64,000 nt of DNA from Octopus sinensis (GCF_006345805.1 NC_043015.1:18910001-18974000), one strand, 5' to 3'; shown: positions 1 to 61,309, counted from the first letter of the stretch. Program-made: numbers and translations. Notes: a model not told the origin generated them from the sequence alone.

Positions 1-605
1 AGTTCAGTATGTGGCAAAGTAATTTATTTTACTAAGCCCTAATTATATAATGTCATATTTTGAATTAGCCTTAAATGGTCCTTTTACATACTGGACACTT
101 GGTGAAATTGATTAATTAATTAATTTTACCCTCAATTCTTGATATTATAATTCATTTCTCTCGGTCATACTGCCTCGGTTCTCGCGGTTAAAATATAATG
201 TTTGCTAGATAGACCACGTGGGTGGAATGGGGAGTGCAGAAATTTACGCCTGCGCATTTTGAATTTATTGATACTGTTAGTTGGAGTGGTTCATCTGAAG
301 CGACAAGTTCGCTGATAGGTAAAGTTCCTTCTTTTTAGTGTTTCCAAATCCAAATTAAGAAATTTTGAGCTGACGAAAGAAATGCTGATTTTATTTGGCT
401 AATCTTGAAACGTTGACGTACTCAAACGATCTATGTACTTGTGATATTTTTCTGTATTTACCTCCAAACCTTCGTGAGCTGTCTGGAGTAAACATTATCT
501 GAGAGAAATTTTCTTTAAGTAGTAAAAATGCTAAGAAAATTTTTTTGGGCTGCTATTTCTACTAAGTTCAGTATGTGGCAAAGTAATTTATTTTACTAAG
601 CCCTA

Positions 606-611
<6 letters not shown>
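1..611 (+). mobile_element. Penelope-like pseudo-LTR / retrozyme-like module ending in (TA)n
   Basis: 47 bp exact direct repeat (1-47 = 565-611), internal hammerhead at 364-426, (TA)n immediately downstream; may extend beyond the window start. Confidence 0.7.
364..426 (+). ncRNA. Type I hammerhead ribozyme
   Basis: tttgag-CTGACGA-aaga...tctt-GAAA-cgttgacg-TA-ctcaaa: stems I, II and III pair, canonical core, GUA cleavage triplet. Confidence 0.8.

Positions 612-660
<49 letters not shown>
612..660. repeat. (TA)n microsatellite
   Basis: Pure TA run. Confidence 0.95.
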
Positions 661-661
<1 letters not shown>

Positions 662-1404
662 GAGCTACATTAAACTTCACACAGGTCACCTGAGGATCGC
701 GAATTATAAACACGCTGTGGTAGCTCATTCAGACTCAGCTTTGCCTTTCATACTTCATGGATCAATAAACTATAACTGTAAGCTCGTCGGACTCTTATCT
801 TATAGTATTTCTTTGTATTCCCAGTTCAAATGCAACCATTACACCATTCATTAGCGTTTTTATGAGAGTCCACTCTGTTGCAAGCATTTGGGCCAAGCTT
901 CGATTTCAGAATAACTCCCCCCTCCACTCTACAAGTCTCGGAGACTCTGCAAAACCTTATGAGTACAGCCGTCCCTCATGACTAAAAGATGAAAAAAATG
1001 TCAGATACATATCTTATTGCAATTGGTCGTGACAGTACTGTTCCTGGTGTTTTTATAATAATGAACACGTATTTACTGTTGCTAAACGGCTACTTAAACA
1101 CTTGAAAAAGATTTCCAGTGGCAGACATATAAATTAGCTTCTAAAGCATTTTGTTTCTTGAGAAACGAAAATTAAAAATTAAGTGACATTACATTTCTAT
1201 CTTTGATTATGACTGAGATATCGATTTATCCGAAATTAATTACTTTAATCAAACATACCACACACACACACGCACACACGCACACACACATACACACGCG
1301 CACGTACACACACACAAACACACACAAACACACACAAACAAACAAGCAAGCAAGCAAACAAACAACCCCCGCCTCCCAGAAAACAGCTTGAGCACAAAAC
1401 ATAT

Positions 1405-2900
1405 AATAACTTTGAATGGTTTCGGCCAGTATAGGCCCAGGCCATGTCTAATGTAATAGCACCATCTGGTGAAATCTTTTAGTCATATATGGGACACCAT
1501 GGCCAACTCCAGCAAAGAGTTATTATTGTTGGGGTGTAGGAGGATGGTTCGGAATTTTTTGAAGAAATTTGTCCAGAGAACTTTTGAATTTTATGGGTTC
1601 CGTTTCTGTTTTGACGTATTTTGATATGATACTAAAGAGAGCTGGACCGGTTGAGGTAAAGTAGTTGTATGTGTCCTGAGTTAGATTTTTGTAGTGGGCG
1701 AGTAGCACGGGAGCTAAGTCTTGGGTGGATTTTAAAATTGATGCCAACATCATTTGCGCAATATTGATGGAATATTTTCCACATCACACAAATGATGTAG
1801 CGCTCCCGACGGCGTTGGAGAGACTAGAGATTAAACTTTTTGAGTTGACTCCAATAGCTAATGCCTGTCATGCCGTCTAATCTTTCATGTTATTGACTTC
1901 TGGAGTGCTTCCACTTTCATAATAAGTTGCTTCGTGTGGGGAGACCACAGTGGGCAGCAATATCAAGGTGGGATCAGGCAAAAGTAGAGTAGAGAAGGAT
2001 GATGGTGTGGGTGTCTCTAGATTGGAAAGTTCTCAGAAACCAGGAGCAGATCTTGTGGGCCAGGTCAACCTTGCTGTTTACGTGGGAACTCCAACTTAGA
2101 TTGTTATCAACAATTACTTCAAGTTCTGTGGTGTTGTTGGATGACACTAAAGAGTCGCCCGATGGAAGGTCATATGGCAGTTTCAGAGCATCCACTTTTC
2201 TAAAGTGGATCAAATTAGACTTATCTTCATTTAGAAGCAAATTGTTCTTTTCCGCCCATTGGAAAACAGCAAACAGATCCGACTGATGGCATGTTCGGTC
2301 TCTCATACTGTTTATGGCCTCCTGGAGTTTGGAATCTTCTGCAAAGATTTTCAATGTAGAATGTTTGATGACGTCTACTAAGCTATTGACGTACAGTAGA
2401 TAATGAAAGGAGTGGGCCCAAAATAGTACCTTGTGGGACACCACAACTGACTTTGGCTGAGCTTGATCGGATTACCTCAAACATAACATGTTGGGTTCTG
2501 TTCGTTAGGAAACACTTTATCCACTGCAGCAGCTTTCTACAGACTCCAATGTTGGACAGTTTCTTCAGCAGGATTTTGTGGCCACTCTGTCAAATGCTTT
2601 GCTGAAATCAAGGTATATGACGTCAGTGTTGGAGCTTTTAGAAAGTCATGAAAATGATACAGAAGCTGCGACAGGCAGTCCCTACCATCACAGAAACCAT
2701 GCTGGTTGGGGTTCAGCAGATTGTTGTCTTCGAGGAAGTGAGTTATTCGTGATCTCACCACCCTTCCAAATACTTTAATGATATGAGAGGAGAGTGAAAT
2801 CGGACGGTAGTTCGTTGCAAGAGATTTCTTTCCCTTTTTGAAAACTGGAACGACAGACTAGAAAGAAAAATGACCAGGAATGTAACCTGCGACAAGTGAG
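1405..2900 (-). mobile_element. Decayed CR1-group/jockey-like LINE, RT and 3' region
   Basis: ORF fragments NNLLNPNQHGF, GVPQGT (2440-2423), LKIFAEDSKL and IVDNNLSWSSHV, with frameshifts and stops. Confidence 0.85.
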
Positions 2901-3002
2901 TTCCTCTAGAACTCAGCTAGACAAAATGAGTAATGAGTAATTTGAATAATCTCTTCGCTTTAACTGCATGGTGCATAAATGTATCAGGAAGAGAGCCAGG
3001 GG

Positions 3003-3411
3003 GAATTCTGCTTTAATTACCCCATGTAACATCTCTATTTCTAGTTTTTGGAATTTTCAGAAAATTTTTGCGAATTTATATTCTACATATAGGAATTCAT
3101 ACAGCTATGAAAAAACAAGAAAAAAGTTTTTTTGCGTCTGATTTAAGGGCTATTTGGCTGTCATTTCTAGCTCATCTCACGACCACCTGATAGCCTTCTT
3201 CTATCATTGTTACTTTAGCGTATCGATGTTTTTCAATATTTTTCTCTCCATAAACACGCTTAATGGTCTATTGCCGTATTGAAGTCAAAATTTAAGACTA
3301 CTTAAAAAATACAAAACAAAATTTCATAATTGTATGAATCCTCGTGTATTTTGAAAATTCCCCAAAATTAAGATGTTATTAGGGTTATATGGGGTGTTTA
3401 AACCAGAATTC
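3003..3411. mobile_element. MITE-like or fold-back element with imperfect inverted ends
   Basis: gaattctgctttaattaccccatgtaac vs gttatatggggtgtttaaaccagaattc; further internal inverted blocks around 3092-3112 and 3322-3342. Confidence 0.5.
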
Positions 3412-3849
3412 TGCAGAGGGCCACTTCAGCAGATCGTGAAGAAGCTATAGAGAATATTTTGTTTTTTGATTTATTCAAATTTCGTTAATTTCATATTATG
3501 TTATTTTCCTATGATTCAATATCATTTGACGTAGATATTGATGTGTATGGGTTTTTTCAAATGTAATTCTAGAGAATTGAAGAGGCTAATTTATCTGTCT
3601 TTCCTTACTCATTTTGACCCATCTAAATTTGTCTTTTATATGCTCAAAGAGATTAAAGGTAATTCTCTGAAATGGTGTTCTGAATATGTTATAGTGATTT
3701 TAATACATTTTAGAGGTTAGTTGATGTAGTTCTTGTTAGATAGTGAACATTTATAAAAATATTTTTTTCCTCAAAGCCAAAAATGCAGTAAATGTTACTT
3801 ATTGTGCCCCACCACCCCTTACTGGAGACAGGAAAAACAGACTTTCATA

Positions 3850-12231: not shown

Positions 12232-12233
<2 letters not shown>

Positions 12234-12531
12234 TTATCAGTAACAATAAAGGGTGAAATTAATTAATTTGGAATAATTATTAATTACACCAAGTAGATTT
12301 CGGCATGTAAAAGCCTCATTCGAGGAAAATTTAAGTAATACTAAGCAATTAAGGGTTTAGCAACGAATTGCCTCACCACACACACCGAATTTAGAAATAG
12401 CAGTCAAAGAGTTATAGCTATTCTTTCTACTAAAAGGGAGATCTCAGTAAAAACACAGCACTTTCAAGTGCTGTGTTTTTCTAAATTCGGTGTGTGGTGA
12501 GGCAATTCGTTGCTAAACCCTTAATTGCTTA

Positions 12532-12535
<4 letters not shown>
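12232..12535 (-). mobile_element. Penelope-like terminal fragment with fold-back, inserted in (TA)n
   Basis: Inverted arms 12338-12397 / 12478-12535, hairpin 12449-12480, (TA)n on both sides, similarity to the 1-611 module. Confidence 0.65.
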
Positions 12536-16659: not shown

Positions 16660-18280
16660 TTCAGTAGTTTTATTTTTATAACGTGCTATCACTTCTCTAC
16701 CGAGCGCAGCTCTGTGTGCCTTGGGTATGTGTTGTGATTTGTTGTGATGCTCTGATGGTTACTGTATGGAAAGTGTTCTGCGTAGGAATTGTGCAGTGCC
16801 GAGTAGTGCAATTTTCTGTATGTTATATGTGTTTGTAAGTCCTGGTGTTTTTGTTATGTGTTTGTCTGAATATTTTTTTATCATGCCTAATGCACCTACT
16901 ATGATAAGAATTGTTTCTGTTTTTAGATTCCACATTCTGGTTACCTCTATTTCCAGGTCTTTGTATTTTGAAAGTTTCTCCATTTCTTTTAGAAATGTCA
17001 TCAATTAGAAAGCATTTTTTTTCTTCATGATCTCTGACAACTATATCTGGTCTGTTGGCCTTAATTTCTCTGTGTGTATTGGCATATCCCAGAGTATGGT
17101 TGCTTTCTCGTTTTCTGTGACCTTTTCTGGTGTGTGCCTATACCATCTTTTTTCTGCTGTTATTCCAGTGTTGGCATAGCTTCCAGTGTATGTAGGTCCC
17201 AACTCTGTCGTGTCTGTGAATATATTCCTTCTTAGCCAGGACTGGGCAGCCAGAGATAATATGATTTATTGTTTCTTGTCCATCTCCACATATTCTGCAG
17301 TTACTTGTTATATTTCTTTTCATTACATGTTTTTGGTAATTTCTGGTGGGGAGGCTTTGGTCTTGTGCTGCAATTAAAAATCCCTCTGTTTCTGCTTTGA
17401 GTCCTGAGCTTCTCAACCATTGCTGGGATTTTTCTTTGTCTATTTCTTTTGCGTTTAGTTTAGTCCAGTACTTGCCATGAAGGGACTTTTCTTGCCATCG
17501 TTTTATCATGGTCCGTTGCTGTTCTAGTTTTAGTTTTGATTTCATTTGCTTTATAGCTTTTGTTGTGTGTTCTTCTTCTTCTTCTTCTTCTTCTTCTTCT
17601 TCTTCTTCTTCTTCTTCTTCTTCTTCTTCTTCTTCTTCTTCTTCTTCTTCTTCTTCTTCATATTTGTTAGGTGTTATGATTTCTTGTTTGTATTTGTCAA
17701 CTTCCTTAAAAACTGAGAACAATTTTTTGTTTTGCTCGTGTTTTGCCGCTATTTGCATCAGTTTTCGTTGCTTCTGAAGTAGGTATTTTTGCAGTGCTAT
17801 GGTGGTTATTTTATAGCAGTTTTCCAGCTTTATAAGGCATCTACCACCTTCTATACGTTGTATATATATCCTTTCTATGTTAGATTTTGGGCGATGCGTC
17901 CTAGATTCTGTCATTATTTTTCTTGTTTTCCTATCTATTTTGGTCAGTTCATGTAGCGTCCAGTTAAGGATATTGTAGCTGTAACTTATAACTGGGACGG
18001 CTAAAGTGCTAATACCTATTATCTTATTTTTAGCATTGAGCTCTGTTTTCAGTATTGATCTAACTCGTCTATAGTATTCTTTCTTTATTTTCTCTTTCAT
18101 TTGTGTGTGTTGTGTCTTATCTAGTTCATGGATTCCTAAATATTTGTAAGTTTGGCTTTGGACTTATTCTCTTATTTCATTGGCTTTATCTAGTGTGATG
18201 TTGCTACTCTTAACTAGTTTTCCTCTTTTCAGGGTTACTTTGGCGCATTTTTCTAATCCAAATTTCATATCTATTTCTTT
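16660..18280 (-). mobile_element. 5'-truncated R4/Dong-type LINE with restriction-like endonuclease (RLE)
   Basis: ETEGFLIAAQDQSL, CCHC knuckle CRICG..ETINHIISGC, RHDRV, RPDIV, KYKDL, QKIALLGTA; (TAA)n at the 3' end. Confidence 0.9.
17570..17659. repeat. (TTC)n expansion inside the LINE ORF (poly-Glu)
   Basis: About 30 GAA codons in frame in ORF 17138-18100. Confidence 0.95.
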
Positions 18281-26763: not shown

Positions 26764-26859
26764 TAGATATGAAGAATAAGTTCAAGAATTATATATTTAC
26801 TACATAAAAATATATTTTATTTACTGGTCGATGATGATACATAATCAAAATGTAGAATC

Positions 26860-29200: not shown

Positions 29201-29254
29201 GGATTTCTGTTGTTCTGGAGGCAGAATAGTGACAGAGTCATTTTGCAAGCTCGT

Positions 29255-30330
29255 GTCATCCCACATTTACCTCCACCACCGCTTCGATCATCCGCATCAT
29301 ATAATTCGGTCAAATCTGAATTCCCAATTTCAGAGGATAAAACGGATTTGTACTGACATAGGAGATTACTGAAAATATGCAAATGCTTTACAATTAAAAG
29401 AAATAGCAAATGAGATAGCTGAGATTAGCAAAGAAAGTCAAACCTTCACGCATAATTTTAGCAAACGCAATGCAATATGTGACAGAATTCCTTTAGTGAT
29501 TAACTGGCACCGAAATTTCGATAGTATTTCAAAAGTGTTGCATGAAATTTACCAGCATGTGGCGAAAATATATCCGTGTTTCAAACAGATATTTAGTCAG
29601 CCACCTATTGTGGTCTTTAGGCAGAATAAAAAATATAAGAGATCTATTAACTGCTATTTCTGATTCCAAGAAAACTAATATTGGAGTCTCTGCACACCGT
29701 ACCTTGAAAAACAGCCACAAGAGAAGTACGCTTTTCATTGTGCCACAATAACAGAAACGTTGTGATTTATACAGAAGGTGAAACATGTACTGTTCGCCAT
29801 TTGGTGTACGCGTCAGAATGCACGAAACACAACTTCATTTATGTTGGTTGCACAACAGAACAATTAAACAAAAGATTTCATGGGCACAGATATGACGTCA
29901 GGCACAATAACGGTAGTTCGACAGAACTTGCTGAACACTTCGTTTCAAGCGGCTGCAATTTTGAGGAAGACTTGAAATTACATATTCTCAAAATATTCTG
30001 AATCTGCTTCCCTTTCAATACATAAAATGCATGGGGAGAAATATGTTTGCGGGTTATTAATATCATGCCCTGGAAGAATGAATAAAATGACAGGAGAATA
30101 TCATCAAATTTATACTAAACTTATTTACATGTATTATTTACTTGTATTATACAAAACTGTTTGATTGAATATTTTTCTTCTATTTCCATTTCTTTTTTCT
30201 TTCCTTTTCGAGAGTTTCTTTTCTGTCTTTTTCTTTTCGCCAGTTATAAAACTGATGATGTCATTCCATCAACGTGTGGACGCCGGGTGCTCATGTTCAT
30301 ACTTTAAATTTGAATTTCTATAATTTTGAA
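29255..30330 (+). mobile_element. Penelope-like element: RT thumb and GIY-YIG endonuclease remnant
   Basis: HIYLHHRFDHPHH..SQFQRIKRICT; TCTVRHLVYASECTKHNFIYVGCTTEQLNKRFHGH. Confidence 0.85.
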
Positions 30331-35506: not shown

Positions 35507-35594
35507 CTCACACACACACACACTTACACACAAATACGTAAGTAACAAACAATAAGGTGAGTAATAAACACTGCACTTGTGGATTCATACTTTC

Positions 35595-35826
35595 TTTTAA
35601 TAAAATAATTGGGGTTAATTTGATATCGATGGTTTCTCGCTGTACATCAGCAATTATTCACCCACAAATTTAAGAACACCAATGTAGCTGAAAAATATTT
35701 GTTATACTGAATTCATTTAACCGAACAAATGTGGATGAGATGTCATAGTTATTCCTTTTGCGGTTGAATAATTGCTAAATTTCTGCAAGAAACCATCTGC
35801 ACTTAACACCAATCATTATGTTAAAA
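35595..35826. repeat. Imperfect fold-back inverted repeat
   Basis: 35595-35668 vs 35757-35826 (gatggtttctcgc..gcaattattcacc / ggttgaataattgc..gcaagaaaccatc). Confidence 0.7.
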
Positions 35827-36448
35827 CAACACTCACACACAAACATTTTGAAAGATAATACATGCGTGTGCGTGCATACGTATGTATGTATGTATGAGCG
35901 CGCGCTCGCGTGAATGTGTGTGTATGTATACATATTTTTGGATAAGTTCATATGCTGTAGAACGAAGACTCAGACAATTCAGAACTCACCCTCCGAAAAA
36001 GAAACTTTTGCAACGAATTTAAAGTAGTAGTGAGTTAAGAGAGTAGTGCGGAAAGGTGGTGTAGATAGCTGATGAAGACACAGTGCGATGAAGCGAAGTG
36101 TCTGAGGATAACGACTGCCTAAAGTTTCAAAACTTTGAATCTTTTTATATCATCACAGACTTACAAAGCCTTCATCAACCTCCACTTAGCAAAATAGCAT
36201 AGTGAGCTCGGAATGTAACATACACCTTAGAAAATATGTGCATTCATAAGAACAATTTGTACATATTAAATGCATTTAAATGCATTTAAAATATCGTTTT
36301 TTGGCTTGACTTCATTACTCACACGCATACGCACACATACATACACACACACACACAGACATGCCACGTGTGTATATATATGCGTGTATATGTGTATGTA
36401 TTGCGTGTGCGCGTTTGCGTCTGTTTGTATGTATGTATGCATATATAA

Positions 36449-36505
<57 letters not shown>

Positions 36506-36559
36506 TATATGAGTGTGTGTGTAGACACACACACACAGAGTGAATGGTTGAATCACTGT

Positions 36560-37260
36560 TTCTAAATGCAATGATAGCCGATGCGGTACATGTCAATTAA
36601 TTCATACTGGCCCATATATGAACACAAAAACAGGAAAAATATTCACAAACGCGAACATGAACTGCAAAAGCAGAAATTTAATCTACTGCATCAAATGGCC
36701 AAATTGTGAAGAGCTGTAAGTTGGCCAGACAGGTAATGCACAATCAGAACGCTCATGTGTGCATCGACAACAAATTAAAAACCCAGAAGTCCGCCAAATA
36801 CCACTGAGTAACCATCTGGCAACATGTGGTCGGAAAACTTTTATGATATTGCCATTTCATAAACTTTACAACCCGAATGAAATTGAGAGAAAACTGAGAG
36901 AAAAAGACTTTATTAAGAAATTCAAAGCCAAGCTTAACAAACAATGATTGAATTAATCTTATTTGCGGTTTAAAAATCTTATGCCTACAACTAAAACATT
37001 AAAAATCTCTAAAAAGTACTACTGTCATCATTTCTAAAAATAAACATTGAAAAATGGTTTGGCATCATTTCTAAAAAAATAGCCAAACAACTACTACTGC
37101 TGCCCACAGGAACATATATAAAGGACAAAAGACAGCCAGTCAACCACAGTTGAAACACTCCTGTCGCAACCTGGGACCTTGAAGACTGCTTTAATGCAAG
37201 AACATATACTGGTCCCTTAATATTTGATATTCAATATTTCATCTATTCAATAAGACAATA
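36560..37260 (+). mobile_element. Penelope-like GIY-YIG 3' end with decayed hammerhead
   Basis: NMNCKSRNLIYCIKWPNCEEL*VGQTG..HRQQI..LREKDFIKKFKAKLN; hammerhead-like motif at 37173-37216. Confidence 0.8.
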
Positions 37261-39162: not shown

Positions 39163-39298
39163 AATATATATATACAATTATAAACCAAGAGAGAAGGTGG
39201 AAATAAGATTAATAAAAATTATTAATACATTGATAAGCGCAACAGTTGTTTCAATTCATCGCTTCAATTCATCACTTAAATCAATCAAATTTAAGTTA

Positions 39299-40574
39299 CG
39301 AGGGGCGTTCAATAAGTAATGCCCCTGACCCACTTCCCATAGCAGTAGAGCAACGAAACTTGGCACAGTTATTAGTCTTTTTCTACATAGGAACCACCCA
39401 GAGTTACGCATTTCTCCCATCGTTCGATGCGGCTCTGGAGACCGTTTTTGTAGAAGAACCCAGCTTGGTCCTCCAACCTCAACGTGACTTCAGAAATCAA
39501 GGCTGCATCATCTGGGAAACGCTTTCCTTTCAAAAACAACTTCATGATTGGAAAGAGGTAAAAATCAGAGGGTGCAAGGTCAGGAAAGTATGGGGAGGAG
39601 TTCATAGCCATACGCCTGTGCTTCTGATCTGGCGACAAGCGAGTTGTGGACCGGAGCGTTGTCCTGCAGGAGGAGGATGCCTTTGCTGATCTTGCCCCGC
39701 CTCTTGATTTTGATAACTTCTCTTAATTTCCTCAAAAGTGAAGCATAATAGGCTCCTGCAATTGTGGTACCCTTTGCCAGGAAATCTGTCATCACTACTC
39801 CGTCCTGGTCCCAGAAGACTGTGAGCATGACCTTGCCAGCGGAGGGCTGCACCCTTGCCTTCTTTGGAGGGGGTGAGTCACGGTGCTTCCACTGCATTGA
39901 CTGGGTTTTGGTCTCTGGATCATCGGGATGGACGCAGGTTTCATCCTGTGTAATCAGTCTTTTGAAAAATTTTGACTCATCTTCTTGGCACATCTCCAAA
40001 TTCACCCTCGAGCACTCGACGCGTTCTTGCTTCTGGAAAGGCGTGAGCAACCTGGGAATCCATCTGGCAGACACCTTTCGCATATGCAAATAGTCATGAA
40101 TCATAGTTTCCACAGACCCGGTACTAATCTTGATCTCATGGGCTATTTGGCGAATAATTATGCGTCGATCTTCCAAAATGGCAGCCTCAACTTGACGGAC
40201 AGATGCCTCCTCAATGGCAGAAGGGGGCGACCAGATCTGGGAGCTGTTTCCACAGAGTTCCGACCATGTTTGAATTCACGATGCCAGCGTTTTACAAGGT
40301 CATATGATGGGGCATCATCACCATAAGTTACTTTCATTTCATCAAAAGTCTCCCGTGGTGTGCGTCCTTTCAAATACAAAAACCGGATCACTGCTCGACA
40401 CTCAACAGGCTCCATTTCACACTTGACTCGGTTGAAACACTTGTAAATCAGAAACCACAATTAATTCAGAGCTGTAATTTGCCACTTACTCTATAGAGAT
40501 ATAAATGATTGTACATGCAACTAGATCAAACAACTGCAAGTGGGTCAGAGGCATTACTTATTGAACGTCCCTCG
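39299..40574 (-). mobile_element. Mariner copy 2, full length but frameshifted
   Basis: Both TIRs and TA duplication; CRAVIRFLYLKG, QDET, QDNAPVH, SPYFPDLAPSDFYLF. Confidence 0.95.
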
Positions 40575-40608
40575 TAAATTAATTAAATCAATTTGGTTAA
40601 TTATTATA

Positions 40609-43623: not shown

Positions 43624-43928
43624 TAGCCTGCTTACAGGTTGCTTCTGCGCATGTGCAAGTCAGTGTTGTGTTTGACACCGAAGATGTAAGACGTGGTTTT
43701 GAAAGCCGTCTTAAATTGAAGACTTTTGGTAAGAAATTCTAATGCCAAATATGCCGAAAAATTGGACATATTGTCCATTAACCATATAATTTTTTCACAA
43801 TTAGAAATTTTTTCCTTTGCCCTCATTTATGAATTGTTTATAAATTTAACCTTTTAAGGTATTTTTTAATATGCTGGCCATTGATAAAATTTTTTTCGAA
43901 AAAATATTTTTTTCGAGAGAAATTTTAT

Positions 43929-44028
43929 NNNNNNNNNNNNNNNNNNNNNNNNNNNNNNNNNNNNNNNNNNNNNNNNNNNNNNNNNNNNNNNNNNNNNNNN
44001 NNNNNNNNNNNNNNNNNNNNNNNNNNNN
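43929..44028. other. Assembly gap (100 N)
   Basis: N run. Confidence 1.
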
Positions 44029-44477
44029 TTTCCTATTTATTATTCTACCTTTACGGTGCTTTATTTCGCTGGAAAATAACGCTATTGTATTGAAAATAAT
44101 ACTTCTGTATTGTAATAATATTTATAATTTTTATATAAAACTCTTTCATTGATCTCGGTTCTGTTTATAGCTGGTGCTATTGGCCGAGTATATAGGCATT
44201 GATGTTGCGGATATTTTAAATTTATTCATCCGGTAGACCTAGTCATTGAAGACCAATCAGTATTACGATAACAAAGGTATTCTGAAAAGTCCGAAACTCA
44301 AGTACTAGCTTGTCCATTTCTCTGGCGTTCTTCCTAGAAGTAAGATGCAATTTTTTTTATGTTCGCCGCCTGCACACATCTTTGCCTCTATATATTCAGT
44401 AAAGCTTTACCTAGCGCATCGGACGGTTACAGACTGCTATTTCTAGCACAAATTGCTACCTTGTTGTGCCACTATTT

Positions 44478-44513
<36 letters not shown>

Positions 44514-44519
<6 letters not shown>

Positions 44520-45131
44520 AAAAATTTAAAGGACTGACCACTAAAAGTGGACGGTCAACATGCTAGATATAGACGTCAAAATCGCTATTTTCCACGAAGA
44601 ATGTGTTGTCAAATAAAACTCAGCACAAACCAAAGCGTAAAAATAAGCAAGACAAATGAAAATATACGAAATAATAACGATTACCTATGTACCGATCAGT
44701 TTCGCTTGTTAATATCCACGCATATGGATACGTGGAAATCTGCAAGCTCCGGTCAAGCGTTTTTGCATCTAGTCCTGGAAATTGTATTTGTATACGACAG
44801 ACTATGCTGATGAGCTTGCAAATTTCCACGTATCCATATGCGTGGATATTAACAAGCGAAACTGATCGGTACATAGGTAATTGTTATTATTTCGTATATT
44901 TTCATTTGTCTTGCTTATTTTTACGCTTTGGTTTGTGCTGAGTTTTATTTGACAACACATTCGTCGTGGAAAATAACGATTTTGGCGTCTATATCTAGCA
45001 TGTTGACCGTCCACTTTTAGTGGTCAGTCCGTTAAATTTTGTATGTAAAGATATTTTAATCTTCGGATTTTTTTAATATGCTAGGCCACTGGTTTTAATT
45101 GATTAATATCAATTTTTACCCTTATTCAATT
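44514..45131 (+). mobile_element. Penelope-like pseudo-LTR with about 235 bp fold-back, in (TA)n
   Basis: Arms 44514-44748 / 44812-45047, hammerhead at 44802-44876, (TA)n on both sides. Confidence 0.8.
44802..44876 (+). ncRNA. Type I hammerhead ribozyme
   Basis: ctatg-CTGATGA-gcttg...caagc-GAAA-ctgatcgg-TA-catag; all stems pair, canonical core. Confidence 0.88.
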
Positions 45132-46296: not shown

Positions 46297-46344
46297 GTAT
46301 GATGTATGTACATATATTTTATTTACGTATATGATCAAAAATAC

Positions 46345-47988
46345 GAGAATTTATTAATCATGACAACTGTTTCGACACATCTAGCATCGATCCCTCATGG
46401 GAGGGACACTCAACAACTGGTTCAGGAGTCTCTATCTGGCGGTGCAGAAGTATCTCATCGGGTGATAAATACGAGGGACGTTCAATAAGTAATGCCTCTG
46501 ACCCACTTGCAGTTGTTTGATCTAGCTGAAATTGTGCATGTGTAATCATTTATATCTCTATAGAGTAAGTGGCAAATTACAGCTCTGAATTAATTGTGGT
46601 TTCTGATTTACAGGTGTTTCAACCGAGTCAAGTGTGAAATGGAGCCTGTTACTTATGGTGATGATGCCCCATCATATGACCTTGTAAAACGCTGGCATCG
46701 TGAATTCAAACATGGTCGGAACTCTGTGGAAACAGCTCCCAGATCTGGTCGCCCCCTTCTGCCATTGAGGAGGCATCTGTCCGTCAAGTTGAGGCTGCCA
46801 TTTTGGAAGATCGACGCATAATTATTCGCCAAATAGCCCATCAGGTCAAGATTAGTACCGGGTCTGTGGAAACTATCATTCATGACCATTTGCATATGCA
46901 AAAGGTGTCTGCCAGATGGATTCCGAGGTTGCTCACGCCTTTCCAGAAGCAAGAACGCGTCGAGTGCTCGAGGGTGAATTTGGAGATGTGCCAATAAGAT
47001 GAGTCAAAATTTTTCAAAAGACTGATTACACAGGATGAAACCTGGGTCCATCACGATGATCCAGAGATCAAAAGCCAGTCAATGCAGTGGAAGCACCGTG
47101 ATTCACCCCCTCCAAAGAAGGCAAGGGTGCAGCCCTCCGCTGGCAAGGTCATGCTCACAGTCTTCTGGGACCAGGACGGAGTAGTGATGACAGATTTCCT
47201 GGCAAAGGGTACCACAATTGCAGGAGCCTATTATGCTTCACTTTTGAGGAAATTAAGAGAAGTTATCAAAATCAAGAGGCGGGGCAAGATCAGCAAAGGC
47301 ATCCTCCTCCTGCAGGACAACGCTCCGGTCCACAACTCGCTTGTCGCCAGATCAGAAGCACAGGCGTATGGTTATGAACTCCTCCCCATCCCCCCTACTT
47401 TCCGACCTTGCACCCTCTGATTTTCACCACTTCCCAGGCATGAAGTTGTTTTTGAAAGGAAAGCGTTTCCAGATGATGCAGCCTTGATTCTGAAGTCACG
47501 TTGAGGTTGGAGGACCAAGCTGGGTTCTCTACAAAAACGGTCTCCAGAGCAGCGCATCAAACAATGGGAGAAATGCGTAACTCTGGGTGGTTGCTATGTA
47601 GAAAAAGACTAAAACTATGCCAAGTTTCGTTGCTCTACTGCTATGGGAAGTGGGTCAGGGGCATTACTTATTCAACGCCCCTCGTAGATACAACTCGTTA
47701 ATACTTTTCTCGTTGAATTGCTTGTTCGTTTCTCTTTTTTTTTTCCATCTGTGATTTTTATCTTTGATCTTCTATATAAATGAAGATATTTTCTGCGTCT
47801 GGCTGTTTTTCTTTCTACAAAACGAGAAGTTACATTGCAGAATTGTTATTTTAACGAGTTGTATTTATTTACCACCCGACGAGACACATCTGCACCGCCA
47901 GATACTCCTGAACCAGTTGATGAATGTCCCATCCATGAGGGATCGATCGTAGATATGTCGAAACAATTATCTTGATTAATAAATTCTC
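46345..47988. repeat. Fold-back inverted repeat with hammerhead-like motif; left arm split by mariner copy 3
   Basis: 46345-46471 plus 47687-47701 is the reverse complement of 47851-47988. Confidence 0.8.
46472..47684 (+). mobile_element. Mariner copy 3, defective
   Basis: TIRs and TA duplication; same sequence family as copies 1 and 2. Confidence 0.95.
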
Positions 47989-48411
47989 ATACATTCCATC
48001 TTCCGTCTTTCATTTGCCATATACATAACGATCACTCTGGAAGTGACCGTGCTTTACCAGTAAGCTACCAAGTGTAAACCATTCTCTTTATTATCCAATA
48101 TTTTATATGTGTATATATGTTATATATATGTTTTATATACATGTATATATAATTTTCCAAAATTCCAATTTTAGGTAAACAAAATATATTCAATCGGAAA
48201 TAAATAAGTAGAATAGAATAACAACACAAATCTCTTTACTACTCAATGTACACATTGTTTGAATTCTAACAAAAGGGAAAGCATTTACTTCAAGAAATGT
48301 GTAGAAACATAAAAATTATAAGAAGTACGTTTAAATGACTAGCCTTCGACGACATAATTCTGTTCAACGGCTGGAGAAAGTTCAAAAGGTCAACTTATTC
48401 TCATTAATCTG

Positions 48412-49193: not shown

Positions 49194-49762
49194 GTGATTT
49201 TTAGTAACCGCATGTCTGTATTCTCTGAATCAAATGTTCTATGTAAATAATGCCGTAAAATGGGGTTTTATTCATTTTCTCTCGGAATTGTTTATATTTA
49301 AACTTCAGGTGGATAATTCCCGCTTATCTTTTATCTTTTACTTGTTTCATTCGTTATCCTGGGGCGATACTGGGATACCTCCGATGAAATTTACTGATGA
49401 TTTTAAATTTATGACGTATTGTATGATTAAATATCATGTAGAAGTATATGGAAACATCTCCTTATTTTCTACAGTATGTTGTAATGGCGATATCTTAGTT
49501 TGTGTTTTTATTGCATTGTGCTTTTATTCATGGGATTATTGTGAGTTTCAGCTTTGTTTATGTCTGAACTTAAATTTTTGAATTGTATTGTTCACAAAAC
49601 CAGAACTAAAAAATAAATTGCCGATTTTCTTCCAGAATTAGCCAAAAAACATTTTATCATTAATTAAAATCTTAGGGTAGCAAGAATATTCATCGAAAAA
49701 TTCTTAGTTACCAGTGGTCTAGCGAGAAAGAAAAAATTAGTCAGTAGACTATATATTATTCA

Positions 49763-49998
49763 AAGAATACAGTGTACGTTCAAATACAAAAAGAGATACC
49801 CGAAAAATAGGATATCTGACTCGCTAGAAAGAGCAGTTGAAGCTACAAGCCACCAATTGTTGTAATTCTGAAAGTGATTGCAAAATAAAACTTTTTTACA
49901 ACAATTGGTGGCTTGGAGTTTTAACTGCTCTTTCTAGCGAGTCAGATATCCTATTTTTCGGGTATTTCTTTTTGTGTTTGAACGTACACTGTATTCTT
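49763..49998. repeat. About 103 bp fold-back inverted repeat next to TA-rich flanks
   Basis: 49763-49865 vs 49896-49998. Confidence 0.9.
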
Positions 49999-52320
49999 CT
50001 TTATATATATATTATCATTATAATGTGACATTTTAAAAATGGTAGTGAGCTACAACGTACCGACGTGATTATATATGTTCTATATCCGTTAAATTGCACA
50101 TCATTTCGCTGCATCATACGACCTTGTGAAAACAAGTACGACCTTCACTAAACTCTCACTGCAATTGGTGGCACCGAGCTAAAAGATCTACAGTTCCAAA
50201 AGCTGTTGCCTCGTATGCTTCCCGATATTCTGATACACGATTGTCTCTACTTCACTAGAAAATTAGACAAAGTTTTGTTTCGCGGTTAAATTTTCCATTT
50301 CGTCGCTACATTCTGGTGACTCGAGCTCAAGAATTACATGCTCATCATATGGAAGACAAGAATAACAACTTTCACTACACAGTTTTCGTTTCGACTGTCA
50401 CAACACGAAGGAAAAGAACTCGCCGACACAATGGAAACCCACCATGCACTTTCGACCTGCCACACAATGCACTCCATTACACTGCACAGAGCCACGAAAG
50501 TAACATCTACAATAAAATAAAAACGCAACATTTCGACTGTCATCCGACCAAAAGCTATATGGATGAAAATATGGAAGCCCCCACATGCAGTGTTCTCCAC
50601 AGTCACAGATTGTTCGAACGCAATCCTGCGTTTAACCTGCATGTCACATGAACACTTGTACATAGACTCAAACTTTCTTTGCATGCACATATTTTTGCAT
50701 TTCAAATGCTTACTTATTTCCTTCTTTTTTGTAGCACTACACACTTTCATTTGTTCTTGAATGTTCTATATTTGTATAACATATTTTTTCTCGTTGGCCA
50801 CTGGAATTTCACATTTTTGCACACGTTTTATAATTCTTTCAACTGTTTTTTCTCGATACATATTTTCTTTTTGAATGCCTGCAACTTCTTTCTTACTTCG
50901 CACGCTGACCCATTTGTGCACTGTTCCGTACTTTGTTGGTAAAACAATATAAAAAATTTCCCTCAACGTTCATACACAAACCTGCAAGTCTGTACCCACT
51001 TACACACACGTACCAAAAGATAGTGCCTTTAGAGTAGTTTTCTCATGTTTGTACCCTCTCGGCTCTTTTTCGCGACTCTGCGTACGTTGGATGTCAGCTC
51101 ATGCTCTCTGCACCCTTGTCAGACACAACCTGCTTCTGTTCATCCCCAGGTTGGTCACGAAGTTAATGAAGAAAATTGTCTGTTCTGCACAACGCGCCAG
51201 TATGCCAAACTGTCGTCGTTCTGGCTAATCTTAGCAAATGCCCATGATGACAACACCAGACACATTTCGCTTCTACACTCCTTTCAAGGCATTTTCACAC
51301 AAAATTCATTGCTGCATGAAAATTTTTGTTGGTATCATGAATTGAGAATGCATACACTCACTCGACTCATTTTATTCCACAGCTGCAGGACTTTCTCTCG
51401 CACTCATGTATACGCCCTTGCACGCTCACTCACTGCCTCAGTTACACAACGACTGGCATATTCAGCACTCATGCGCATGTTCGTTCACTCTGCCTCAGTC
51501 GCACAGCAACTGGCATATTCTGCATTCTGCGCATAAAAAGCGGCACCGTTTTTCGGACTCACTCGAATAGAGACCCTTTCCTGTATGCATTCTCTGGATC
51601 CTCTCTCCTGATATTCACAATTTTTCTCAACCTTGCATCACAGTCACCAACAACAAAATACCTTTCACAATTGAATATTATCTTCACCTTGTCCTAAAAT
51701 GCATTTTTGCATGCATGCATTCTTTTCCCTAGATCGTTCGTTTGTTTTTCTAGGAATTCTCAAGCAGGGGAATAGTGTAGGGACCTCGCTTGGCCCTGTC
51801 TGAGATTTGAAACCAAATTCACTCGCTTGTTGTTTATCAAAACAAGCAGAAAAATCCTTTGTTTGTATCCCCACACCAAATGATTGATGGGGAAACACTT
51901 GACCCCAAGGACCTGTGCTGGTCAAGGAAAGGTCAGCCCTTTGTTTAGGGTTTGACCTACATTACTGACCATAGTCTATATATCAGAGAGCACTTTCTAT
52001 CTCTTCCTCTTTTGTGTCTGCCAGACCAAGGAGCAGTAGCCTCTTTTGTGTCAACCACGGCCAAGTGCAGCACTTCCCTTCGCCCTTTGCTTGACATACA
52101 AAGTGAAGCTTTCGGCCGCAAGAAAGACGAAGCCACATTTATCCTTTCTTCCTTTCTAATCAGCAATGTACAGTCCTTACTCTTTCCCTCTCTACTGGCA
52201 GGTGCCAACTTCTACACTATCAACTACTACCCGGCGAGCCAACCTTTTTGACACTATCACTACAATTACTACTGTCTCTCTAACTACCTATTAGGCAAAA
52301 GAATAAATATATGTAAATAA

Positions 52321-54044: not shown

Positions 54045-54142
54045 TGTATGTATGTATGTATACACACATACACATACATATAGTATAGTATTTATACACA
54101 AAGAGGCTACCCTTTACAAGACATCTTACATGCTAGAGAGGG

Positions 54143-54423
54143 CAGCCAAATCCAAGCCCAAACCACGAAAAAGGTAATTCCAAAGGGAATGAAAACGACA
54201 ATTGTTAACAGTTAATCCCAAACTCGAGTTTCTGTATTAATGAGCAAATAAATTTATTTGCCATCAGTACTTAGGCGATACCACTGATTAGTGCCATCAC
54301 CTAAGTACAGTTGGCAAATTAATTTATTTGTTTATTAATACAGAAACTCGAGTTTGGGATTAACCTTAAATAATTGTTGTTTTCATTCTCTTTGGAATTT
54401 CTTTCGTGGTTTGGGTTTGGCTG
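54143..54423. repeat. About 280 bp imperfect palindrome
   Basis: Centred near 54287; contains the 3' half of a hammerhead (GAAA-ctcgag-TT). Confidence 0.9.
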
Positions 54424-56084: not shown

Positions 56085-56088
56085 CATA
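55397..56088. repeat. Long degenerate (TA)n tract
   Basis: Visible. Confidence 0.95.
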
Positions 56089-58599: not shown

Positions 58600-59484
58600 T
58601 GGAGCACCGCGAAGGTGGACAGGCTAAGGAAACTGAGGACCACATATCATGTAGACTTGAAAACAGCTGCCGCTACTAGAGCTGAAGCTACTCCAGGGAA
58701 GCGTGTAACCTATCGGGTGCATACTGCTGACGCAAGGGCCGAAAACCCCACAAAAGAGTGCTATCCGTCGGGCACGCAACGCTGCATCCACTTCTGCCTC
58801 GAGGGCCGACAAAGCCTCAGAAGAGAGTTCTATCCGTCGGGCACGCAACGCTGCATCCACTTCTGCTGCGAAGTTGGCAGATGGCGATAACCATCAGATG
58901 ATGAAACTTCAGTCTAATGTTCACCGGAAAGCTCTTGCCCATGGCTATTGCAAGCCATCGAGTAATCGAGGGCATCAAAGACGCTCAATTATGATCCTGC
59001 CGAGAATGGCGCCACTCATCGAGAGACTGTTACAGGGGATATGTCTGTAATAAGTCCATTTTGCAAAGCCCTCAAGTGGATTGGAGAATCCAGTGGCCTA
59101 TCCTGTTTAAAAGGAAAGGTTCGCTTGCCTCACCTGCAAAACATTCCTCAGACTTTCCTCTCTTTACTCCTTGGTCAACACCATGATTCGCAGCAATTTA
59201 TACAGAAAATTCGCGCTTATAACTCTACCTTCCAGATGACAAGTTTCGATCACAAACCCATTCATGAAGGCTCCTATATGTCAACGTTCAAAATTCAGGC
59301 CCAAACCTATCATCGGATAAGCTTTATTCTTCCTGTCAACAACGCTGAACACCGATTCCTTCAAATTTACTTCATGGGAGATACCACTGAGCAAACGGCT
59401 CACTGAGCTCGGGTAGCACCTGAAACAAAGTGAAAAAAATACCACCAAAGCAACTTATTCGTCCCAAGGACGGGTGCGTTTGCC

Positions 59485-59486
<2 letters not shown>
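58600..59486 (+). mobile_element. Helitron fragment: N-terminal Rep region joined to a 3' end
   Basis: 23-codon repeat SAIRRARNAASTSASRA (58755-58870); IRAYNSTFQMTSF..FKIQAQTYHRI..FLQIYF; terminal hairpin then CCGG|T. Confidence 0.8.
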
Positions 59487-59518
<32 letters not shown>

Positions 59519-59519
<1 letters not shown>

Positions 59520-60087
59520 CAAGGAAAAATTGTAAAAAGGCAGAATGCTAAATTGAAAGAAAATTTTAATGAAAATGGGCGTATGAAAAAAGTTTTTGAA
59601 AAATTGATAAAATATATATATATTAATTCAAACCGGTTTTCGTCATAATGTGACTTTTCAAGAATTGTAAAGAAAAAAAAATTTTAAGTGAGGAGGAGGA
59701 AAAAAGAAAATTACATTGTTTTTTGCAAAAAAATAATAATAAATATATACAAAAATTAAAAAATAGGTACTCCGATACATTGTAAAGTCTTTGTGTATCT
59801 TGAGTTTAATGATTGTTCACGAAAAAATTACCTTGAAGTATTGAGATCCAATGGGATTAAATCCATGTGTTGTTTAATTTAATTAAGGGTGTCTCTTAAG
59901 TGGAACTGGACTACTATTACTGCTTCCTGTTTTACCATCCACTTAAGAGACACCCTTAATTAAATTAAACAACACATGGATTTAATCCCATTGGATCTCA
60001 ATACTTCAAGGTAATTTTTTCGTGAACAATCATTAAACTCAAGATACACGAAGAATTTACATTATGCTTTTTTACAATTTTTCCTTG

Positions 60088-60088
<1 letters not shown>
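59519..60088 (-). mobile_element. Penelope-like module with hammerhead and fold-back, between (TA)n tracts
   Basis: Hairpin 59781-59904 / 59938-60061; terminal inverted 59519-59542 / 60065-60088; hammerhead at 59625-59666. Confidence 0.7.
59625..59666 (-). ncRNA. Minimal type I hammerhead, U3-A8 variant
   Basis: Minus strand aattc-TTGAAAA-gtca-catta-tgac-GAAA-accggt-TT-gaatt. Confidence 0.7.
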
Positions 60089-60133
<45 letters not shown>

Positions 60134-61133
60134 TGGCAAACGCACCCGTCCTTTGGACGAATAAGTTGCTTTGGTGGTCTAAATAATGAGTAATCAAATA
60201 AAATACATATATATTATTTTGAAAATAATTTATATTACTATAATATTTATTTAAAAATAATATAATTATTTATTTATCATTTAAACCTATTATAAAGGTA
60301 CTTTAATTTATGTTTACATTTAATTTTACGTTCGTCCAAAGAGTTTATGAACGCGCAATTTTTATTATCACTAATAAATATTTCAATAATATGTAAAATC
60401 TCTTTTATAAGATTTGTTTTAACCTGAGTCCCAAAAGGAATGATTAACCAAATATTATTTTTATTTATATGTTTTATATTATGATTAGAAAATAAAATAA
60501 TAATTATTCTTATAAAAAAACTCTATTATCTAAATTAGAAACTTAAAACATTAGGATTATGTCATACAACCCATTTATTATGTTAAATATTAATTTTTGA
60601 GGTAAAGAAATAGATAGAAAAATTTATTTATCTATTAAGATATAATATGGCTTTAAAAATCATAATAAACTCACAAATATCGTTAACTCAGTTATAGTCC
60701 AAAATCTAATTACCAAATTATTTAACAAAATAATCACTATTCATATTTTTAAATTTAAGTTCACATCTAATAATTATAAAATATTTAAAAATAATAACTA
60801 AATTATTTCGTCTGACAATATATTATTTTATTATTTGGTGGCTTATGTATTTGTAATATAAAATTTTAAGTTAATTAGGTATTATATTATTTGATATTAG
60901 GTCAACTTTGTTATTGATTTTTATATTAAATCTATAGATATTACACATGTATATTTATTATATGGTTAGATTATTTAAGGAGTTTGTTTATATTTGAACC
61001 ATTTCTTATTTTGATTATAATTTAATGATTTGTACTGGCTTTGGGTATTTTATTTAATTTTAATGTATTTAATTATTTAAGTATTATTTTATTTTTCACT
61101 TATGTATATTTAGTATTTTCAAATATATATATA

Positions 61134-61179
<46 letters not shown>

Positions 61180-61222
61180 GTATACTTATTAATTAATTAT
61201 TTTATTGTTCTAGTTTATTTTT

Positions 61223-61309
61223 AACCTGATGAGTGACTATATGTATATCGAAGTTATTTCTCTACTACTATAATCATTTCTTAAATATAGCCACGAAGCA
61301 CGTGTCGTT
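61223..61309 (+). ncRNA. Type I hammerhead with one core substitution
   Basis: aac-CTGATGA-gtgactatat...atatagccac-GAAG-cacgtg-TC-gtt. Confidence 0.65.

Follow-up and report, generated by a model that had tools for sequence, protein, structure and literature searches.

Background

Hammerheads, inverted truncated copies, tails and a bias for (TA)n are already published features of Penelope-like elements (PLEs), as described in the available parts of the reports (PMC4209133, PMC3846280, PMC8557442, PMC11167929). In the endonuclease-bearing elements Neptune and Nematis (PMC8557442), for example, there are 5' truncation, partial tandems, an inverted truncated copy beside the 5' end, a tail on one end, a (TA)n bias and a CX2-5CxxC zinc finger before a GIY-YIG endonuclease that is C-terminal. 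The minimal PLE hammerheads (PMC4209133) belong to type I, have a palindromic helix III, include a U3-A8 variant and show high diversity in one genome; pairs of them lie 100-700 bp apart on opposite strands, and most motifs are read there as probably truncated PLEs. Penelope insertions in Adineta vaga (PMC3846280) have head-to-head inverted pseudo-LTRs with a shorter inverted copy, palindromic junctions and an optional 31-bp tail, and the authors favour self-priming. Moreover, the protein of another PLE, the Poseidon element PAc of Anolis (PMC11167929), nicks and extends both strands of AT-rich DNA and starts reverse transcription internally on an uncleaved RNA, in a stem-loop where two sites yield a tail. 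Related to the PLE pseudo-LTRs are also the non-LTR retrozymes, which are non-coding and carry a type I hammerhead (PMC7229834; 10.64898/2026.07.22.740005).

The window analysed here is one strand of 64,000 nt from Octopus sinensis (GCF_006345805.1 NC_043015.1:18910001-18974000), and its loci are short, often head-to-head remnants of PLEs in an animal genome. Apart from the tail, which is longer here and occurs at only some of the fold-backs, they resemble Neptune/Nematis in the features named above. They likewise share the characters of the minimal hammerheads, although loop II is long here, up to ~55 nt, and one group of loci has a conserved structure downstream of the ribozyme that is not described in the available text of PMC4209133. 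The Adineta layout recurs too, but there the pseudo-LTRs flank ORFs with 8-10 bp target duplications, whereas the arms here are ORF-less and a target duplication would be masked because of the (TA)n. The likeness to PAc lies in the route of insertion that we infer below; the start sites of PAc are adjacent and sit in an AC-rich loop inside the ORF start, while the putative sites here are ~90-110 nt apart and UA-rich, with microhomology to the target and no recognisable ORF start. Retrozymes form head-to-tail arrays of ~300-nt monomers with a hammerhead each, unlike the present loci, which are mostly inverted or solo and end off the cleavage sites. What is apparently new in print is a covarying stem around the short-arm end and a second hairpin before the long-arm end, for which the available literature yielded no published description.

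Results

Hammerheads and coding remnants

A strict descriptor of the type I hammerhead with palindromic helix III gives three perfect-core matches, where 40 shuffles average 0.075 per window. These are the motifs at 364..426 (+) and 44802..44876 (+), both with intact core and palindromic helix III and the latter with a long loop II, and the motif at 59625..59666 (-), with a compensatory U3-A8 core; all three outscore every shuffle, as expected from an earlier reading of the sequence alone (the sequence-only reading), which listed them as intact or with one core change. With one mismatch allowed there are five matches against 0.875 +/- 1.14 in shuffles, one of them an AT-rich chance match at 60216. 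In a scored scan with 12 shuffles, whose scores are not clean because an AT-rich two-mismatch match at 35153 (-) outranks all shuffles, the equal-or-better matches expected per window are 0.08 for 61223, 1.08 for 46461 (-), which is ambiguous on its own score, and 2.9 for 54284, and no match is found at 37173, 39233 or 47872. The motif at 61223..61309 (+), part of an AT-rich solo module bounded by TA tracts (61175-61585), had been given as intact or with one core change; it has one core change and is graded as probable only. Among the sites read as decayed or half, 46357/47872 and 37173 are decayed and 54335 is half, while the half hammerhead-like motif at 39176..39292 (-), between a mariner copy and (TA)n, is not separable from chance. 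The Rfam search called none of the nine claimed hammerhead sites.

The decayed type I hammerhead at 37173..37216 (+) has a 6-bp helix I in the fold, is below the descriptor threshold and lies ~230 nt downstream of the stop of a broken, 5'-truncated PLE ORF (36555..36944, +). This remnant begins 45 nt after a (TA)n tract and encodes a GIY-YIG endonuclease, C-terminal in the ORF, with 47-60% identity to seven proteins, four of which have RT and GIY-YIG (best E 3e-42), the 60% being that to full-length RT-endonuclease proteins; a CX4CxxC zinc finger of the Neptune/Nematis type is located at 36567, and the endonuclease is C-terminal in the relatives too. The full-length relative L001 has the same ORF-stop-hammerhead order, with the hammerhead ~150 nt after the stop. 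The tie of the modules to a GIY-YIG element, which the sequence-only reading had envisaged, is thus present inside the window, in the sole hammerhead module tied to a PLE ORF, whose RT part is truncated away. A second family is represented by a broken ORF remnant at 29230..30090 (+) with the RT thumb region, a linker and the GIY-YIG endonuclease (in Pfam, PF01541 with E=0.002, under the curated threshold; with profiles, E=2e-7 and 0.004), and the scored scan has no hammerhead match downstream of it near 30260. Naiad elements, with an N-terminal endonuclease and no canonical hammerhead, were considered and rejected, as in both ORF remnants here the endonuclease stands last in the ORF; the 3' ends published for octopus Naiad show no likeness to the motif group below by eye or by exact strings.

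With hammerheads of PLE type and an endonuclease ORF upstream of one of them, the PLE origin proposed earlier is supported, and we regard it as very probable for the hammerhead and motif loci. The families are most likely of Neptune type, a call based on the zinc finger and the domain order because the RT is not preserved beside any hammerhead; no RT core is left beside a module within the window. Because the hammerhead lies ~150-230 nt past the ORF stop, modules with at most 270 nt upstream of it would lack an ORF even with an autonomous parent. No PLE coding match was found near the six motif-group loci (best E 1.3; 2562 six-frame tiles), which are too short to expect one. The earlier idea of many non-autonomous lineages is not established: one hammerhead module derives from a coding element, of which it is the truncated 3' end, and heavy 5' truncation of the copies explains the module structure.

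Fold-backs and (TA)n tracts

All seven fold-backs claimed from the sequence are real, with 62.6-718 bits against 50.0 for the best shuffled local inverted match (30 shuffles). Four of them bear the shared motif treated below. The fold-back at 12338 (12232..12534) lies between two (TA)17 tracts, with its long arm at 12477-12232 (-) and its short arm at 12478-12534 (+) (identity 57/59, spacer 80 nt), and is too short to contain a hammerhead. That at 44514 (44516..45130), between (TA)18 and (TA)12, has a short arm at 44749-44516 (-) and a hammerhead-bearing long arm at 44750-45130 (+) (227/234, 62 nt), and that at 49763 (49676..49999) a long arm at 49895-49676 (-) and a short arm at 49896-49999 (+) ending at (TA)5 (108/117, 30 nt). 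The near-perfect fold-back at 54143 (54090..54420; 115/134, 4 nt) is homologous to 49763 (z 9.3), and each of its arms holds a hammerhead's 3' half; its left arm has the motif (54145-54133) and stops at the short site, and its right arm breaks within the motif.

The other three have no motif. The fold-back at 46345 (46342..48100; 125/145, spacer 149 nt when the left-arm mariner is skipped), which has no stem A either, carries a decayed hammerhead in each arm, at 46461-46350 (-) and 47872-47980 (+), and the arms bear different lesions of one hammerhead motif; the left arm is interrupted by a later mariner with TA duplication (46466-47691), and the right arm extends ~110 nt beyond. Mariner elements with TA duplications occur in three copies in the window. 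At 59781 (59519..60088, between (TA)16 and (TA)22; 122/124, 33 nt), the long arm at 59937-59519 (-) holds the hammerhead, while the right arm at 59938-60088 misses ~235 internal nt including it, and the last 21-26 nt are common to both arms. The old fold-back at 35595 (35592..35829; 57/77, i.e. 74% arm identity, spacer 88 nt) lacks both hammerhead and motif, and no (TA)n lies within 470 nt of it; its membership in the PLE group is not established and it fits nothing specific.

Polarity is head-to-head in all six fold-backs that can be oriented by hammerhead or motif: the arms face outward, with the element 3' ends at (TA)n and the truncated 5' ends meeting centrally. A one-sided extension, or tail, of 85-110 nt is seen at 12338, 44514, 49763 and 46345, against the 30-40 nt given for Neptune/Nematis in the available text of PMC8557442; it is absent at 59781, where both arms end at the same base, and from either arm at 54143. 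The arms differ by 2-26%, with independent changes. As to the proposed (TA)n association, 12 of 21 measured ends are within 4 nt of a tract of (TA)>=5, but 11 of the 21 were placed by eye or by the tract itself; among the 10 fixed by arm or tandem homology, six lie within 4 nt of such a tract, against a background of 1.5% of non-tract bases within 10 nt, which supports the association and agrees with the insertion bias of Neptune and Naiad.

The motif group and its end points

The motif is common to six loci only. It is exact at 549, has one mismatch at 12392 and 44433, two at 49924 and three at 44985 and 54133, the last two read from the alignment; the five sites reported before are thereby confirmed, with 0-3 mismatches, and 44433 is an additional copy. 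A pattern built from these copies gives eight matches against 0.43 expected, a partly circular count with three of the eight outside modules. Two loci of the group are not fold-backs. Positions 1..140 (+), truncated by the edge of the window, form an upstream copy's 3' end and show homology to the long arm of 12338 (z 10.4), and 141..611 (+) is the downstream copy in direct tandem, with hammerhead, motif (549-561) and a short-site end beside (TA)24; the repeat distance is 564 nt, and 1-47 is identical to 565-611. A solo end at 44029..44479 (+) stops against the left side of (TA)18, 34 nt beyond its motif (44433-44445), and is the weakest member in leave-one-out (E 0.26). By contrast with the single system once proposed for the whole window, which mixes six homologous motif loci, five unrelated hammerhead loci and one fold-back without Penelope feature, 306 pairwise tests give no significant homology to the motif group for 46345, 59781, 61223, 37173 or 39233.

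Counted onward from the motif's final base, the short ends lie at 34, 43, 48, 50, 51 and 63 nt, and the ends of the two (TA)n-reaching long arms at 133 and 160 nt; the long arms run further, as in the sequence-only reading, which often placed the short ends about 50-70 nt past the motif. All six short ends fall within 30 nt (P ~0.001 under a uniform spread over 160 nt), a non-random placement as foreseen, in a test that is biased because loci were chosen for having the motif with TA close by. The direct tandem (611) and the solo copy (44479) end at this short site as well. The fold-back junctions do not fall on cleavage sites: at 44514 they are at 44750 and 44812, with cleavage at 44871, and the inner ends of 12338 and 49763 are 73 and 58 nt before the motif, with the cleavage site 114-129 nt before it.

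A predicted RNA fold around the end points

Downstream of the hammerhead, the RNA of the motif group is predicted to fold as a stem A followed by a hairpin B in all four long arms. Stem A pairs 2-12 with 86-96 in 1..140, 12389-12380 with 12308-12299, 44994-45006 with 45073-45085 and 49828-49820 with 49726-49718; hairpin B is at 101-130, 12290-12252, 45091-45120 and, as a variant, 49712-49676, and the long-arm motifs at 44514 and 49763 occupy 44985-44997 and 49837-49825. Hairpin B corresponds to the 'aatTTYaccc' end motif noticed before, which is present at 122, 12251 (-) and 45112 but by itself is not above chance (14 vs 12.2). Fold z-scores are -5.33 (1..140), -3.17, -4.31 and -3.04, against +0.21, +1.32 and +1.08 for three non-motif 3' regions; the opposite strand also folds for 44514 (z -4.58) and 49763 (z -2.78), so that strand preference is seen in only two of the four. 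Two pairwise consensus folds, between which stem A is shifted by ~8 nt and on which the covariation rests, have 28 pairs with three changed on both sides and 18 pairs with five; none is broken in either, which is partly built in because RNAalifold counts only pairs that both sequences can form. In all four long arms stem A encloses the short-arm end (outer-pair probability 0.94-1.00), which sits in a UA-rich spot of the loop with TA-like microhomology, and the long arms end 10-30 nt beyond hairpin B. The conserved fold thus appears to mark two places where copying into the genome would begin.

Discussion

Our overall best explanation, which we hold to be probable, is that the loci represent pseudo-LTR regions, the 3' ends of endonuclease-bearing PLEs from several families, 5'-truncated on insertion and inserted via two structure-defined internal starts. 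The two-sided priming route itself we put at slightly better than even. Target-primed reverse transcription would use both strands of a (TA)n target: a nicked (TA)n end would align on the UA-rich loop of stem A, one target strand priming at the distal site and the other at the loop site, and both cDNAs would stop early and be joined head-to-head by microhomology, giving a fold-back with a one-sided tail of 85-110 nt. A single priming event would leave a solo copy and a template jump a direct tandem, and hammerhead cleavage would not define the insert ends. Several results count against this explanation: the motif profile finds nothing in L001 (best E 1); none of the motif-group loci is connected with an ORF, while the ORF-linked 37173 module is without motif, stem A and fold-back; the tail is longer than published and is missing at 59781 and 54143; and the opposite strand folds too in two of the four long arms. 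Exact motif strings are likewise missing from the consensus files of Naiad, Chlamys and Hydra, save one match in the Chlamys file.

The same palindromes might be produced by one priming event, in which a snap-back of the cDNA 3' end is followed by copying in cis, after which the hairpin is opened and linked to the target's other end (self-priming, the proposal in the available text of PMC3846280). The spacer of just 4 nt at 54143 would suit this, as would the internal deletion in the 59781 right arm, such as a template skip would give, and a 44-bp inverted repeat (43/44) outside both TA tracts of 59781, near in identity to the arms, as copy-through into the flanks would leave; but that repeat may consist of the 3' ends of two Helitrons, remnants of which lie on both sides, and at 12338, 44514 and 49763 the flanks show no duplication. 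Moreover the short end recurs in the direct tandem and the solo copy, where no snap-back happened, and a PLE protein extends both strands in vitro according to the available text of PMC11167929, so that we consider self-priming unlikely. Somewhat less doubtful, though still rather unlikely, is that the motif group comprises true non-autonomous, retrozyme-like lineages (short monomers, perhaps with circular RNA) mobilised in trans by PLE proteins, a possibility compatible with the two-start insertion route. Retrozymes are reported as non-autonomous PLE derivatives in the parts available of 10.64898/2026.07.22.740005 and PMC7229834, and the 564-nt tandem at 1-611 returns to the hammerhead without an intervening ORF; yet this sole tandem is cut by the window edge, and two complete tandem hammerhead units occur nowhere in the window. 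A PLE coding match is absent beside every motif locus, but with so little upstream sequence an ORF would not be expected; no junction coincides with a cleavage site, the 37173 module derives from a coding element, and the reading of single and opposite-strand motifs in PMC4209133, as far as available, is that of probably truncated PLEs.

For 35595, and possibly 59781, an origin independent of PLEs, from MITE-like DNA transposons that bear terminal inverted repeats and insert at TA, is quite improbable: 59781 has symmetric inverted termini of 21-26 nt flanked by TA, 35595 is devoid of any PLE feature and three TA-duplicating mariners are present in the window, but the 59781 long arm holds a perfect U3-A8 hammerhead, and the outer ends of the three long-arm motif fold-backs differ by tens of nt, unlike terminal inverted repeats. 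MITE or Tc1-mariner derivatives are ruled out for 12338, 44514, 49763 and 46345 by their unequal outer ends. The window contains a 100-N gap (43929-44028). This gap, and the trouble that inverted PLE structures cause in short-read assemblies (available text of PMC8557442), might suggest assembly or library artefacts, which we consider extremely improbable, as an artefact would copy one arm exactly, while the arms differ independently by 2-26% and one arm of 46345 contains a mariner with TA duplication.

Returning to the truncated PLE 3' ends with two internal starts, we tentatively suggest that a PLE lineage may keep a two-part RNA element (motif with stem A, and hairpin B), shared by families that have diverged beyond the reach of BLAST, as a signal for RT loading and initiation, in which the UA-rich loop would pair with nicked (TA)n as telomerase RNA aligns its primer, and the halves of a dimer would use different starts on opposite strands. 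If this is true, one RNA structure would account for microsatellite targeting, the tail and head-to-head insertion, and it would provide a cis signal usable by non-autonomous copies.

Fold-backs and their setting

The seven fold-backs, palindromes whose two arms often differ in length, which the sequence-only reading had placed at 12338, 35595, 44514, 46345, 49763, 54143 and 59781, are all present there; arm identity ranges from 57/77 to 122/124, and the spacer between the arms is 4-149 nt long. Their scores range from 62.6 to 718 bits, while none of 30 block shuffles gave a value above 50.0. Since the arms have diverged, and since a mariner with its TA duplication sits inside one arm of 46345, it is very unlikely that these palindromes were created by the assembly. 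Wherever the polarity of a fold-back can be read, it has the 3' ends of the element on the outside and the truncated 5' ends at the centre.

The window has a GC content of 36%, abundant microsatellites, a 100-N gap at 43929-44028 and dense transposon debris, namely three mariner copies, several non-LTR reverse transcriptase (RT) fragments, Helitron pieces and a dispersed SINE-like repeat. The mariners (25541-26769, 39291-40582 and 46466-47691) are young, being 93-97% identical with TIRs of about 43 bp and TA duplications, and two of the three lie in or beside hammerhead loci. The non-LTR remnants, including 17138-18163 (-), presumably represent R4/Dong-like, RTE-like and Tx1-like elements, as judged from their motifs, and in one of them a (TTC)30 tract lies in frame and would encode poly-glutamate. 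The strongly AT-rich stretch 60180-62710 (19-27% GC) adjoins a broken Helitron helicase and contains three copies of one segment (60569-60742; 61743-61975, interrupted by part of a SINE; 62601-62707). Neither a tRNA nor a mitochondrial ORF was found in this stretch, and a mitochondrial insert at 60180-62700 is not supported.

Hammerhead ribozymes

The Rfam scan called none of the claimed hammerheads, its matches being almost entirely microsatellites against miRNA models, and it found nothing on L001 and L002, two outside contigs with Penelope-like ORFs; the ribozymes of the ORF-less fold-backs escape Rfam. With a descriptor for type I hammerheads having a long loop II and a palindromic helix III, three perfect cores are found (364, 44802 and 59625), where a shuffled window yields 0.075 on average; an initial regular expression, with loop II of at most 40 nt, had missed 44802, 59625 and 61223. 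The core of 59625 is the U3-A8 covariant, which PMC4209133 reports among hammerheads of Penelope-like retroelements (PLEs). In a scored scan, the number of equal or better matches expected per window is 0.08 for 61223, a probable hammerhead, 1.08 for 46461, ambiguous when taken alone, and 2.9 for 54284, which is weak, and 37173, 39233 and 47872 gave no match. The hammerhead of 46345 is supported, since its two arms bear different lesions of one motif, and 37173 retains a 6-bp helix I. Among the other claimed sites, 54335 counts as a half motif, because what looks like its first core strand, at 54284, arises from the fold-back junction itself, and 39233 is indistinguishable from chance.

An extra type I hammerhead, absent from the earlier list, lies at 35061-35011 (-), with both core strands perfect, a 6-bp helix I, a true hairpin as helix III and a bulged helix II; Rfam HH9 gives it 19.8 bits (E 3.3), and the scored scan did not recover its fold. 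It begins about 45 nt from a (TA)7, and more GC-rich unassigned sequence follows. At 44812 and at 54286-54290, in one fold-back each, an arm has its inner end at or close to the first hammerhead core strand, which, with two cases only, may be chance.

Coding links

Two broken PLE ORFs, neither mentioned in the sequence-only reading, are present in the window. One, upstream of the 37173 hammerhead, has 47-60% identity to seven proteins, among them four with an RT as well as a GIY-YIG domain; it starts just past a (TA)n tract, and its stop lies about 230 nt 5' of the hammerhead on the same strand. The same order is seen in L001, a stray contig with a full-length relative, where the hammerhead lies about 150 nt past the stop. 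Since an endonuclease ORF precedes the 37173 hammerhead, and since L001 repeats this order, one module at least represents the 3' end of a coding element that was truncated, and the non-autonomy proposed earlier need not apply to modules with at most 270 nt upstream of the hammerhead. The proposed Penelope link holds for 37173, on the basis of its homology to proteins, and for the hammerhead loci, on the basis of the type of ribozyme and the arrangement, while for the loci sharing the conserved motif it is not proven by any ORF. The second ORF, with thumb, linker and GIY-YIG at about 29230-30090 (+), is of a different family, with only ~30% identity to the first; 3' of it, near 30255, the first core strand of a hammerhead stands alone. 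Where the long arm of 59781 starts, a possible C-terminus of an endonuclease gave no score.

Among prokaryotic genome contigs, a single-protein query found no stray PLE loci, and a query alignment of five of the seven proteins found two, L001 and L002. Both contain hammerhead cores, and the conserved motif was found in neither. In L001 (1-3875) the coding region is extended on the N-terminal side by a long additional stretch; L002 contains inverted repeats of 47 and 34 bp (430-476/1488-1534 and 1457-1490/3628-3661). Filed under bacterial MAGs, they are probably eukaryotic contamination.

A motif group with a common 3' anatomy

In a homology test of 18 segments (306 comparisons, arm self-matches set aside), 1-140 versus 12338 (z 10.4), 49763 versus 54143 (z 9.3), 141-612 versus 12338 (z 6.7) and 1-140 versus the 44514 tail (z 5.3) are clearly homologous; values near 5 are marginal, because one unrelated pair reached 5.6. 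A leave-one-out profile gave E values of 4e-4, 8e-9, 0.017, 0.038, 7e-4 and 0.26, from an alignment built with all rows present. From these pairwise homologies and the profile recovery, a motif group can be delimited by sequence comparison as 1-611, 12338, 44514, 49763 and 54143, with weaker support for 44433, the motif of the solo end 44029-44479. The single window-wide system proposed earlier is thus not sustained: only six loci are homologous, the 3' ends at 46345, 59781, 61223, 37173 and 39233 are unrelated to them, and 35595 shows no PLE feature. A possible seventh 3' end of the group, 43803-43928 (+), aligns to 1-140 with z 4.7; it terminates in a 21-bp hairpin exactly at the assembly gap.

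Other readings of the motif were rejected. As coding sequence, an [AT]-[AS]-[IL]-S frame fits the changes, yet by eye it stops within 2-13 codons at four of five loci; as a splice acceptor, it lacks the AG in both arms of 12338. A motif-like match at 29650, within the remnant of a PLE coding region, is regarded as a coincidence, and those at 3157, 22593, 48591 and 58507 have no downstream structure or TA end.

In the sense of the hammerhead, the order in the group is hammerhead, motif, stem A, short linker, hairpin B and end, with 114-129 nt from hammerhead to motif (two loci). Folded separately, all four long arms give the predicted stem A and hairpin B (z -3.0 to -5.3), and no such fold appears in three non-motif 3' regions; the antisense strand also folds in two of the four. 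Pairing is kept though the strands differ between families, with both-side changes in 3/28 and 5/18 predicted pairs in two pairwise alignments. The end motif aatTTYaccc, previously singled out as a shared feature, is not enriched alone, but it forms the 3' strand of hairpin B, with a fourth, variant copy in 49763. The short arm ends within the stem A loop in 4/4 cases, at a TA-like stretch; short ends (n=6) lie 34-63 nt beyond the motif, and the long arms reaching (TA)n end 133 and 160 nt beyond it. Moreover, the same short site terminates a direct tandem and a solo copy. A covarying stem that brackets two recurrent ends is a candidate initiation signal.

Proposed insertion route

According to PMC11167929, a purified PLE protein, for which a dimer is predicted, cuts AT-rich DNA on both strands and extends both, its template is uncleaved RNA, and reverse transcription begins inside a stem-loop at two sites, yielding a tail. 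The present loci have probably followed the same route: one target strand would prime past hairpin B, the other in the loop of stem A, which offers an alignment site for a (TA)n primer, and the resulting pair of short cDNAs would be joined head-to-head. The ribozyme probably does not set the insert ends, since no fold-back junction lies at the cleavage site. That one conserved RNA element guides initiation, by aligning the (TA)n primer and fixing both start sites, seems to us tenable, at somewhat short of an even chance.

The main rival is snap-back, the self-priming of a single cDNA, as proposed in PMC3846280. It fits 59781 better, where the outer ends are equal and a 44-bp inverted repeat (43/44; 59441-59484 and 60135-60178) lies beyond both TA tracts; however, this repeat may be two Helitron ends. 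It resembles a Helitron 3' end, a hairpin followed by CTAG-like sequence, and either this or a duplication of the flank upon insertion would explain it. To its left lies a Helitron-like N-terminal remnant (58966-59406, +), and to its right are Pif1 helicase remnants (62691-63361, -).

Comparison with known elements

In their working, the loci resemble PLE ends. PMC8557442 already describes truncation, partial tandems, a (TA)n bias, a tail on one side and an inverted copy next to the element, PMC4209133 reports opposite-strand hammerhead pairs 100-700 bp apart and reads them as probably truncated PLEs, and PLE-derived non-autonomous retrozymes are found in PMC7229834 and bioRxiv 10.64898/2026.07.22.740005. 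The overall pattern is known and so adds little alone, and the sequence-only reading was largely right in what it observed and only in part in how it interpreted it. In the literature searched, which takes in few subscription papers, no description was found of a conserved stem A and hairpin B or of 85-110 nt tails, and this does not prove novelty.

About a dozen such loci in a 64 kb window suggests that they are abundant in the source genome, and fold-backs without an ORF are easily mislabelled as MITEs or unknown repeats. The origin of tandem and inverted PLE insertions, together with their microsatellite preference, is named as an open task in PMC8557442, and the in vitro PLE data found concern one element only (PMC11167929). 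The covarying stem offers a concrete, mutable candidate, and genome copies alone could separate two-sided priming from snap-back.
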